From sequence record OL770073.2: a stretch of DNA of 64,000 nt. One strand, given 5' to 3'. This DNA is from Escherichia phage vB_EcoM-RPN226. The notes below the pieces were generated by a model. The model was not told the origin of the DNA. It saw nothing but the letters and a program-made list of their open reading frames with translations, and did no database searches. This document shows positions 9,681 to 10,493 of this stretch, piece after piece. Numbering within the stretch: the first letter of the stretch is position 1; the number at the start of each line of letters is the position of its first letter. Both the position numbers and the translations under genes were made by a program.

Positions 9681-10493
9681 TTATTCGACCTTCTTAAATT
9701 TGCAATTGTCAAAATGGTATCTTTTAGCGTGAGACTTATCCATGATTTTAGAACAATGCGGGCATTTTAATTTTTCTCTGCTATGAGATACACCCGTGAT
9801 AACTTTGCATTTATCGCCGTGGTATTTTCCATAATTTCCTACATCACATATAATTCCACAATGTGGACAATTTCTTTTTTCGACTTTTGCAAGACCCTTA
9901 GATAGTTTATTTAAATACTTTTCGTATTTTTGGGGGTCGCTTTTAAGCTCAAACCAAAAATCTTTCATTTGTTTAGAACATCTTTCTTTATATTCTAACA
10001 TTTCGTTTTCTGACAGCGATTCTAAATATTTCACAGAAGCTTTTTGAATATTTGCATTAACTTCTTTTCTCTTTTCATCTGTCCATAAAGATTTAGTTTT
10101 TTTAATACCTTTTCCAGCTTTTTTAATTCGTTCCTTCTTTAAATTTGGTGGTAGATTTGCCCAAAACTTTTTAGTGGTTTCTGATCTAATTTTGGACGTT
10201 TCCTCTTTAATCCATCCGTAATCTTTACTTACAATTCTCTGTTCTTTTGTACCCTTGGAGAATTTTATTAAGGCATAAGCCATTTCAGAATTTCGGTGTA
10301 TTTTAAAAAGAAGCTCATGCGCAAAATAATGTTCTCTTGCTGTCAGTAAAACCTTATTTTCTCTAGAGTCATCTCCTCCCATAGATTTTGGGACAATATG
10401 GTGTGATTCCGTATAATAATCTAATTTTTTCTTATTGAGACCTCTTTTAAGAGATCTTTCTATAAGAGAGTTGTAAATTTTAGTATAATTCAT
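9681..10493 (-). CDS. free-standing HNH homing endonuclease (inserted between genes 13 and 14)
   Basis: HNH motif [31 protein letters not shown] near N-terminus; C-terminal Cys/His cluster CPHCG...CPHCS (zinc ribbon); start overlaps gp13 stop. Confidence 0.8.

Follow-up and report, generated by a model that had tools for sequence, protein, structure and literature searches.

Genes 13 and 14 of T4-like phages encode essential neck proteins, and the presence of a further open reading frame (ORF) between them in Escherichia phage vB_EcoM-RPN226 raises the question of what this gene is and how it persists at such a junction. The ORF (positions 9681-10493, minus strand) lies in a 64,000-nt stretch of sequence record OL770073.2 (hereafter the window), a Tequatrovirus (T4/T6-like) segment that carries its late structural genes on the minus strand. 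An initial annotation, made from the sequence alone, had proposed an HNH homing endonuclease. The ORF is real (270 amino acids [aa], ATG start, TAA stop) and very probably represents a Mob-type free-standing HNH homing endonuclease gene (HEG), referred to below as the 13/14 HEG. It is of an already known kind, because near-identical copies have been deposited and annotated in T6 and about 45 relatives.

Identity of the 13/14 HEG

The identification is carried by homology to MobE of phage T4, a proven mobile free-standing HNH endonuclease (PMC2790892). The two proteins align over their full length (BLASTP: 33% identity in 247 aligned columns, E 3e-28), from the N-terminal MNYxKIYN...HHI.P...N...REH motif through the CPHCG...H.DKCK finger. 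A match to PHROG 655 ("homing endonuclease"; E 1.7e-52) spans residues 1-267, and the HNH motif claimed in the initial annotation is recovered in the profile search by Pfam HNH_4 at residues 25-52 (25.7 bits versus a gathering cut-off of 22). Residues H31, H32, N46, H55, and H59 of the nuclease domain and C244, C247, H260, and C264 of the second C-terminal finger are invariant across an alignment of 82 homologues. Searches of the protein against NCBIfam returned nothing meaningful, and a sequence search of the PDB gave nothing below E 0.07, with no solved structure matched significantly.

The family is large and occupies many sites. There are 430 homologues at E <= 1e-5, and tblastn matches five loci in T4, namely, the mob genes, and relatives with 25-45% identity, scattered over numerous intergenic sites, in more than 1000 phage records. 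The lineage found at the 13/14 site forms a subgroup of its own (51-97% identity), whose two fingers occupy conserved positions. Its closest members, which are 97-99.6% identical and annotated as "homing endonuclease", occur in T6 (RefSeq YP_010067306.1), sutha, CrRp10, and others.

Domain architecture

In the AlphaFold2 model of the protein (mean predicted local distance difference test score 93; 96-98 over residues 1-50), the N-terminal nuclease domain consists of strands 29-32 and 47-50 and a helix at 52-66; it is followed by a linker with helices at residues 69-79, 90-112, 116-135, 139-159, 162-185, and 187-203 and by two C-terminal fingers. The best whole-chain matches in Foldseek are the HNH domains of Cas8-HNH, McrA, Cas9, and the Gme nicking enzyme, all weak (E 0.3-1), accompanied by weak local matches to tandem C2H2 fingers. 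Most homologues carry NUMOD3 (PF07460) in the linker, and the family consensus has GKxxSxExK repeats in the aligned region; the Pfam NUMOD3 model gave no significant match to the protein of the 13/14 HEG.

The CPHCG...CPHCS sequence at the C terminus had initially been read as a zinc ribbon. Both CPHC motifs are present, but the ribbon fold did not hold up: each unit has the form C-x2-C-x12-H-x3-C (by regular expression and translation) and is modelled as beta-beta-alpha, and according to the model, they are better described as two CCHC fingers with the classical C2H2 spacing. Homologues carry one to four such fingers in tandem; those of the 13/14 HEG are proposed to read DNA. Among the 82 homologues, no other C-terminal element is as conserved as the CPHCG-x12-(W/Y)HFDNC finger, which no Pfam model fits significantly, the best being assorted zinc-ribbon or nanos models (E ~0.01).

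Insertion architecture and expression signals

The location between gp13 and gp14 given in the initial annotation is borne out by the identification of both flanks against T4 (Table 1). Comparison with the uninterrupted junction of T4 (GGT TAA T ATG GCT) shows that the window reads GGA TGA, where the stop codon forms part of the start ATG A.., and resumes with GAA TAA T ATG GCT at the other end. The insertion point thus falls precisely after the final sense codon of gene 13 and immediately before the TAA-T-ATG at the head of gene 14. The initial annotation had described overlapping codons at both ends of the ORF. The overlap at its start exists (ATGA), but that at its stop does not: the TAA is separated by one base from the ATG of gene 14 at position 9679, exactly as in HEG-less T4, and the protein begins with MATYDKNLF, as T4 gp14 does. 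The apparent overlap arose because the ORF tool chose an in-frame TTG at 9712 upstream of the real start. The AAGAAGG in the 3' end of the HEG is a Shine-Dalgarno-like sequence for gene 14.

No exact T4 late promoter (TATAAATA) was found on this strand between 5734 and 17821, and one-mismatch matches near the 13/14 HEG are at chance level. Sigma-70-like and terminator-like matches at the gene do not exceed what shuffled sequences give or have no T-run. Folding of 91 nt around its start yields -11.6 kcal/mol, no better than shuffled sequences (z = +1.14), and only a 4-bp CUCC/GGAG stem. Judged by these sequence signals, the 13/14 HEG appears to be a promoterless cassette whose start is coupled to gene 13. 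An Rfam scan at gathering thresholds detected no group I intron near 8.8-11.6 kb, and the only one in the window is located at 56038-56269, so that the description as "free-standing" is correct.

Between fibritin and gene 13 (11432-11449, minus strand) lies a strong GC-rich hairpin with a T-run behind it (TGGGGCCGCAAGGCCCCA AAGGATTTTT), which carries a terminator annotation in phage NR1. Transcripts for gene 13, the HEG, and gene 14 must start downstream of this hairpin or read through it.

Distribution among T4-like phages

The gene occurs sporadically. Among 504 Tequatrovirus records matching the region, 46 (~9%), including T6, carry the HEG at this site, and 454 have a contiguous 13-14 junction with the two genes one base apart. 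Fifteen T4-like loci from IMG/VR were also compared. In all eleven of the more distant ones (gp13 identity down to 41%), genes 13 and 14 are adjacent without an insert; one of the four Tequatrovirus-like loci (L005) carries the HEG. The three closest homologues outside Tequatrovirus (P0002, P0003, and P0004; 51-56% identity) come from three different T4-like phages, in each of which the gene directly separates gp13 from gp14. Related endonucleases thus use the 13/14 junction in at least four T4-like lineages, which makes this late structural-gene junction, rather than the usual genes of nucleotide metabolism, a stable homing niche. The initial annotation had called for a synteny comparison, with conserved presence in all T4-like relatives speaking against recent mobility; the gene is absent from ~90% of the close relatives. 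With the homology to MobE and the lack of an intron, this sporadic presence sustains the view of a free-standing homing endonuclease at a conserved junction.

The record "T4_ev151", considered as a possible laboratory transfer of the HEG into T4, was rejected: it is a different mosaic phage, with 80-85% identity to T4 upstream of the HEG and 97.9% downstream. The metagenomic T4-like contig L018 has its own HEG at the 13/14 junction and an additional ORF of 198 aa (1621-2217) between gp14 and gp15 that contains a NUMOD3 motif (Pfam, 22.5 bits, E 1.1e-4) and has the appearance of a further endonuclease-like insertion among the neck genes.

The distribution also bears on the idea that the gene is a domesticated nuclease with a non-homing function, be it in packaging (a terminase-associated HNH protein like HK97 gp74), in the exclusion of competitors, or in counter-defence. 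Such a role would fit the position of the gene among the late structural and packaging genes, with the terminase genes 16 and 17 three genes further downstream; HNH proteins beside terminases are described as common in cos phages (PMC3592412), and in T6 an anti-defence side role has been reported for SegB, a free-standing endonuclease (PMC13096335). Nevertheless, domestication is extremely unlikely, given that about 90% of the close relatives are viable without the gene, which is moreover not adjacent to the terminase genes, genes 14 and 15 separating it from gene 16. T4-type phages package by a headful mechanism without an HNH cofactor. In addition, the full-length architecture is that of MobE and unlike that of the small terminase-associated HNH proteins, and homing would predict a recoded patch in strict linkage beside the insertion, as observed (see below).

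Age, selection, and decay

The junction regions of 14 HEG-positive and 6 HEG-less genomes were aligned in detail, and diversity was calculated from the 12 intact HEG copies and the same 12 genomes. Synonymous diversity (pS) is 0.065 in the HEG, two to three times lower than in gp13 (0.20) and gp14 (0.14), which indicates that the HEG copies coalesce more recently than the surrounding DNA. The ratio of nonsynonymous to synonymous diversity (pN/pS) is 0.09 for the gene and 0.04 in the finger region; the former value implies purifying selection. The gp13 sequences of HEG-positive genomes are not monophyletic, and in 60-nt windows across gp13 and gp14 the net divergence between HEG-positive and HEG-less genomes is about zero.

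Twelve of the 14 sampled copies are intact. In SHFML-26 and vB_EcoM_F1, a run of seven adenines (A7) has contracted to A6, and the resulting frameshift leaves a product of 153 aa; metagenomic protein P0005 is likewise a truncated product (154 aa). The frameshift splits the HEG of the two phages into two annotated "hypothetical proteins".

Such truncations are what would be expected of a decaying relic, that is, a former homing endonuclease that no longer cuts or moves and survives only because it does no harm and is tightly linked to neck genes that the phage needs; the life cycle of HEGs also predicts degeneration once a gene is fixed (PMC2988022). A relic is nonetheless very unlikely, because the low pN/pS of the intact copies, which is lowest in the fingers, and the retention of all catalytic residues and zinc ligands are at odds with relaxed constraint, the reduced synonymous diversity implies recent spread, and a gene present in only ~9% of genomes is not fixed. 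As judged from these sequence data, the 13/14 HEG is probably still active.

A recoded gene 13 tail linked to the HEG

The last 18 nt of gene 13 differ consistently between carriers and non-carriers. HEG-positive genomes have the tail GTGGGAGTGTTAGTTGGA, and HEG-less genomes have TTTGGAATTTTGGTAGGT. The seven fixed differences (gene 13 nt 910, 912, 916, 918, 921, 924, and 927) result in the replacements F304V and I306V and three synonymous substitutions, and there are no fixed differences in the other 909 nt of gene 13 or in the first 540 nt of gene 14. All 46 HEG-positive records match the HEG-positive junction at >= 94.3%. In short-query BLAST searches, the HEG-positive tail occurred in no HEG-less record, and an artificial "HEG-deleted" junction had a best full-length match of only 90.7%. 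The HEG-less IMG/VR genome L003 illustrates how narrow the patch is: it has two mismatches to the window in the 120 nt upstream and differs at all seven fixed positions inside.

The same region is recoded beside the HEG in two further lineages. Locus L033 and its near-isogenic, HEG-less relative, Shewanella phage Thanatos-1, have mismatches at 2 of 246 nt upstream and 3 of 891 nt downstream, but differ at 8 of the 19 final nt of gene 13, which encode PMGIIIG in L033 and PFGILIG in Thanatos-1. Locus L034 differs from three HEG-less CF1-like relatives by four clustered, synonymous differences in the last 12 nt of gene 13, shared against all three; the remaining differences are scattered. Codons ~303-309 are therefore recoded beside an HEG in three lineages, with a different replacement sequence each time. 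By analogy, this is the pattern that Wilson and Edgell describe for MobE (PMC2790892): in mobE-positive phages, nrdB has polymorphisms surrounding the nick site.

The homing site is accordingly placed, with somewhat better than even confidence, in the last ~20 bp of gene 13. This amounts to a concrete prediction, namely, the HEG-less sequence CCATTTGGAATTTTGGTAGGT, for which a natural, putatively immune variant exists as a control. In the window, no good match to an extra copy of the HEG-less target 29-mer was found (best 19/29). Residues 301-308 of gp13 form the portal-binding arm (PMC12929587), so that the putative target, like most homing sites, codes for a peptide under functional constraint. 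At position 304, gp13 varies between genera (V, T, or M), and the linked substitutions are thus plausibly tolerated.

An alternative reading, which is possible although it is given clearly less than even weight, explains the recoded 18-nt tail as an adaptation for expression (a Shine-Dalgarno-like GGGAG) or as donor sequence left by the founding insertion, with the cleavage site located elsewhere. It draws on the fact that HEG-positive Tequatrovirus and L033 both change TTT GGA to NTG GGA (yielding TGGGA) and both use the ATGA overlap, whereas L018 and L034, which have a 9-nt spacer before the HEG, keep TTT; moreover, the cleavage sites of SegG and MobE are remote from their own genes (PMC2790892). 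However, the GGGAG of Tequatrovirus lies 10 nt and the GGGA of L033 13 nt from the ATG, outside the usual range of 5-9 nt. The changes in L034 are clustered and purely synonymous (ATT CTC ATT versus ATA TTA ATC) and create no Shine-Dalgarno sequence, and the different replacements of codons 304-308 in three lineages are more readily explained by escape from recognition than by a common expression signal. The choice between these readings has no bearing on the identification of the gene.

A more speculative extension, put forward only tentatively, is that the homing site is the DNA encoding the C-terminal portal-binding arm of gp13, that each homing event installs a variant arm, and that the one to four fingers constitute a modular, possibly re-targetable DNA-reading array. 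The arms concerned are F304V/I306V in Tequatrovirus and F to M/L to I in the Thanatos-like lineage. If this is true, a selfish nuclease gene drives alleles of a virion-assembly interface through T4-like populations.

Proposed mode of homing

By analogy with MobE and MobA, the protein would act as a nuclease that introduces a nick or a double-strand break at its target and thereby promotes homing. The 13/14 HEG would have no promoter of its own and be transcribed with the late 13-14 message, and it would be translated at a low level through ATGA coupling to gene 13; its 3' end would provide the ribosome-binding site (RBS) of gene 14, so that neither of the two essential neck genes would be disrupted. 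When HEG-positive and HEG-less phages infect the same cell, the enzyme would recognise the 3' end of an HEG-less gene 13, approximately CCATTTGGAATTTTGGTAGGT|TAATATG (codons 303-309), and its single HNH site would probably nick one strand of this allele at or near the end of the gene, although a cut is also conceivable. Recombination-dependent replication of T4 would then repair the damage from the HEG-positive genome, copying the HEG together with the 18-nt recoded tail. The seven substitutions and the insertion itself would shield the carrier genome from self-cleavage.

Several points weigh against an active gene that homes into the end of gene 13. The frameshifts in the A7 run of 2 of the 14 copies may represent decay or, alternatively, homopolymer sequencing errors, and the low synonymous diversity could result from a sweep or from slower mutational or recombinational input instead of homing. 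An RBS-sequestering hairpin or an internal terminator of the MobE type was not found at the gene. The recoded tail could be a relic of a donor gene 13 or, with its GGGAG 10 nt before the ATG, an aid to translation of the HEG, in which case it says less about the target site; and because free-standing HEGs often cut hundreds of bp away, the target could lie elsewhere. Finally, a literature search that left most subscription journals uncovered returned no paper and no cleavage or homing experiment on an endonuclease of the 13/14 junction.

Genomic context

The features of the locus are listed in Table 1. The closest public record is that of Escherichia phage sutha (98.7% identity across 2551 nt). 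Base composition provides no signal of foreign origin, since the G+C content of the 13/14 HEG (31%) falls within the range of its neighbours (31-39%), and no second copy of the gene was found within the window. In vB_EcoM_G9062, the gp14 region (2071-2896) contains a duplication of ~55 nt in gene 14 (BLAST pieces overlap at query positions 2222-2276), and the gene is annotated as a truncated protein of 185 aa; a duplication in this essential gene may be an assembly artefact.

Table 1. Features of the 13/14 HEG locus of phage vB_EcoM-RPN226 (window coordinates)
Feature	Position	Strand	Remarks
gp17	5730-7562	-	
gp16	7546-8040	-	
gp15	8049-8867	-	
gp14, neck / head closure; downstream host gene	8909-9679	-	Pfam T4_neck-protein, E 2.7e-138; 99% identity to T4 gp14
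3' end of HEG and junction to gene 14	9677-9695	-	AAGAAGG at 9689-9695; TAA-T-ATG at 9677-9683 (HEG stop TAA, 9681-9683)
13/14 HEG	9681-10493	-	270 codons plus TAA, ATG start; Mob family
CCHC finger 2 (predicted), residues 244-264	9702-9764	-	Family-invariant finger
CCHC finger 1 (predicted), residues 209-229	9807-9869	-	Aligns with the single finger of T4 MobE
Helical linker, residues 69-203	9885-10289	-	Putative degenerate NUMOD3-like repeats; five long helices in model
A7 homopolymer run, HEG nt 391-397	10097-10103	-	
HNH (beta-beta-alpha-metal) nuclease domain, residues 1-66	10296-10493	-	Core motif at 10317-10409
ATGA, gene 13 stop / HEG start overlap	10490-10493	-	Read from the sequence
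gp13, neck / head-tail adaptor; upstream host gene, presumed target gene	10490-11419	-	98% identity to T4 gp13
HEG-linked recoded tail of gene 13, codons 304-309	10493-10510	-	Predicted disrupted or immune homing site
Fibritin (wac)	11452-12909	-	
gp12	12919-14469	-	

The window encodes several other homing endonucleases. An nrdD-like gene (PHROG 487) is split into two parts (55536-56081 and 57112-58386, plus strand) by the group I intron at 56038-56269 (plus strand; Rfam RF00028, 103 bits), which carries an ORF for a homing endonuclease of 258 aa (56309-57085, plus strand; PHROG 314), as in the nrdD/I-TevII arrangement of T4. Directly downstream of nrdD and overlapping its end, another ORF (58379-59209, plus strand) encodes a free-standing homing endonuclease of 276 aa (PHROG 314, E 2.5e-59). 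According to Sandegren et al. (2005), as cited second-hand, this position is occupied by mobC in T4 and by segH in some relatives. A cluster of eight tRNA genes (32351-33706, plus strand) includes, ahead of the last tRNA, an ORF for a homing endonuclease of 221 aa (32964-33629, plus strand; PHROG 314, E 1.1e-48), which corresponds to the SegB-type arrangement of T4 and T6.

Comparison with known systems

For annotation, the matter is settled: the ORF is to be described as a Mob-family free-standing homing endonuclease and is neither a neck nor a packaging component. The 13/14 HEG adds nothing conceptually new to the biology of homing endonucleases; the site-specific lineage, the linked patch, and the coincidence with the portal-binding arm are modest additions.

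With the terminase-associated HNH proteins of cos phages (HK97 gp74 type), the protein has in common the HNH motif and a location in a structural and packaging cluster. Those proteins, however, are small, terminase-adjacent, conserved, and needed for cos cleavage, whereas the 13/14 HEG encodes a Mob-like protein of 270 aa, lies three genes from gene 16, and is absent in 90% of the relatives. The intron-encoded enzymes I-HmuI, I-HmuII, and I-TevIII share the extended two-part design, in which an HNH catalytic domain is tethered to a separate DNA-binding region, but they are encoded inside group I introns; the 13/14 HEG lies outside any intron, and its neighbours gp13 and gp14 form two complete genes, as they do in T4, with no intron interrupting them.

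In its lifestyle, the 13/14 HEG would resemble SegF and SegG of T4, known from "intronless homing" and localized marker exclusion (PMC2988022; PMC2790892). Like these, it is an intergenic cassette between conserved genes, and by analogy, it would cut the HEG-less allele of its neighbour and co-convert flanking markers. By contrast, SegF and SegG belong to the GIY-YIG family, make double-strand cuts, and leave long co-conversion tracts, whereas the linkage of the 13/14 HEG in populations extends over only ~18 nt.

The closest counterparts are found in the Mob family. MobA-D of T4 and other Mob-like HNH genes fall into the same PHROG family (655) but occupy other sites (gene 39/60, alpha-gt, nrdD/nrdG, uvsW, topoisomerase, and others). 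From MobE, which is inserted between nrdA and nrdB, the 13/14 HEG differs in its location in late neck genes rather than early/middle nrd genes, in a second CCHC finger and ~40 extra residues, in lacking a significant Pfam match to NUMOD3 and a detected internal terminator or RBS hairpin, and in a putative target that abuts the insertion instead of lying ~120 nt inside the downstream gene. MobE is promoterless, overlaps the upstream gene, and nicks a polymorphic site in a neighbouring gene, where the polymorphisms of mobE-positive genomes are protective (PMC2790892, PMC2988022). The 13/14 HEG matches it in the N-terminal HNH motif (MNYxKIY...HHI(V/I)P...N...REH) and the CPHCG...H..DKC finger, in the apparent lack of a promoter and the overlap of its start with the upstream gene, in its sporadic occurrence among T-even phages, and in the polymorphisms that carriers show in the (here putative) target region of the neighbouring gene (PMC2790892, PMC2988022).

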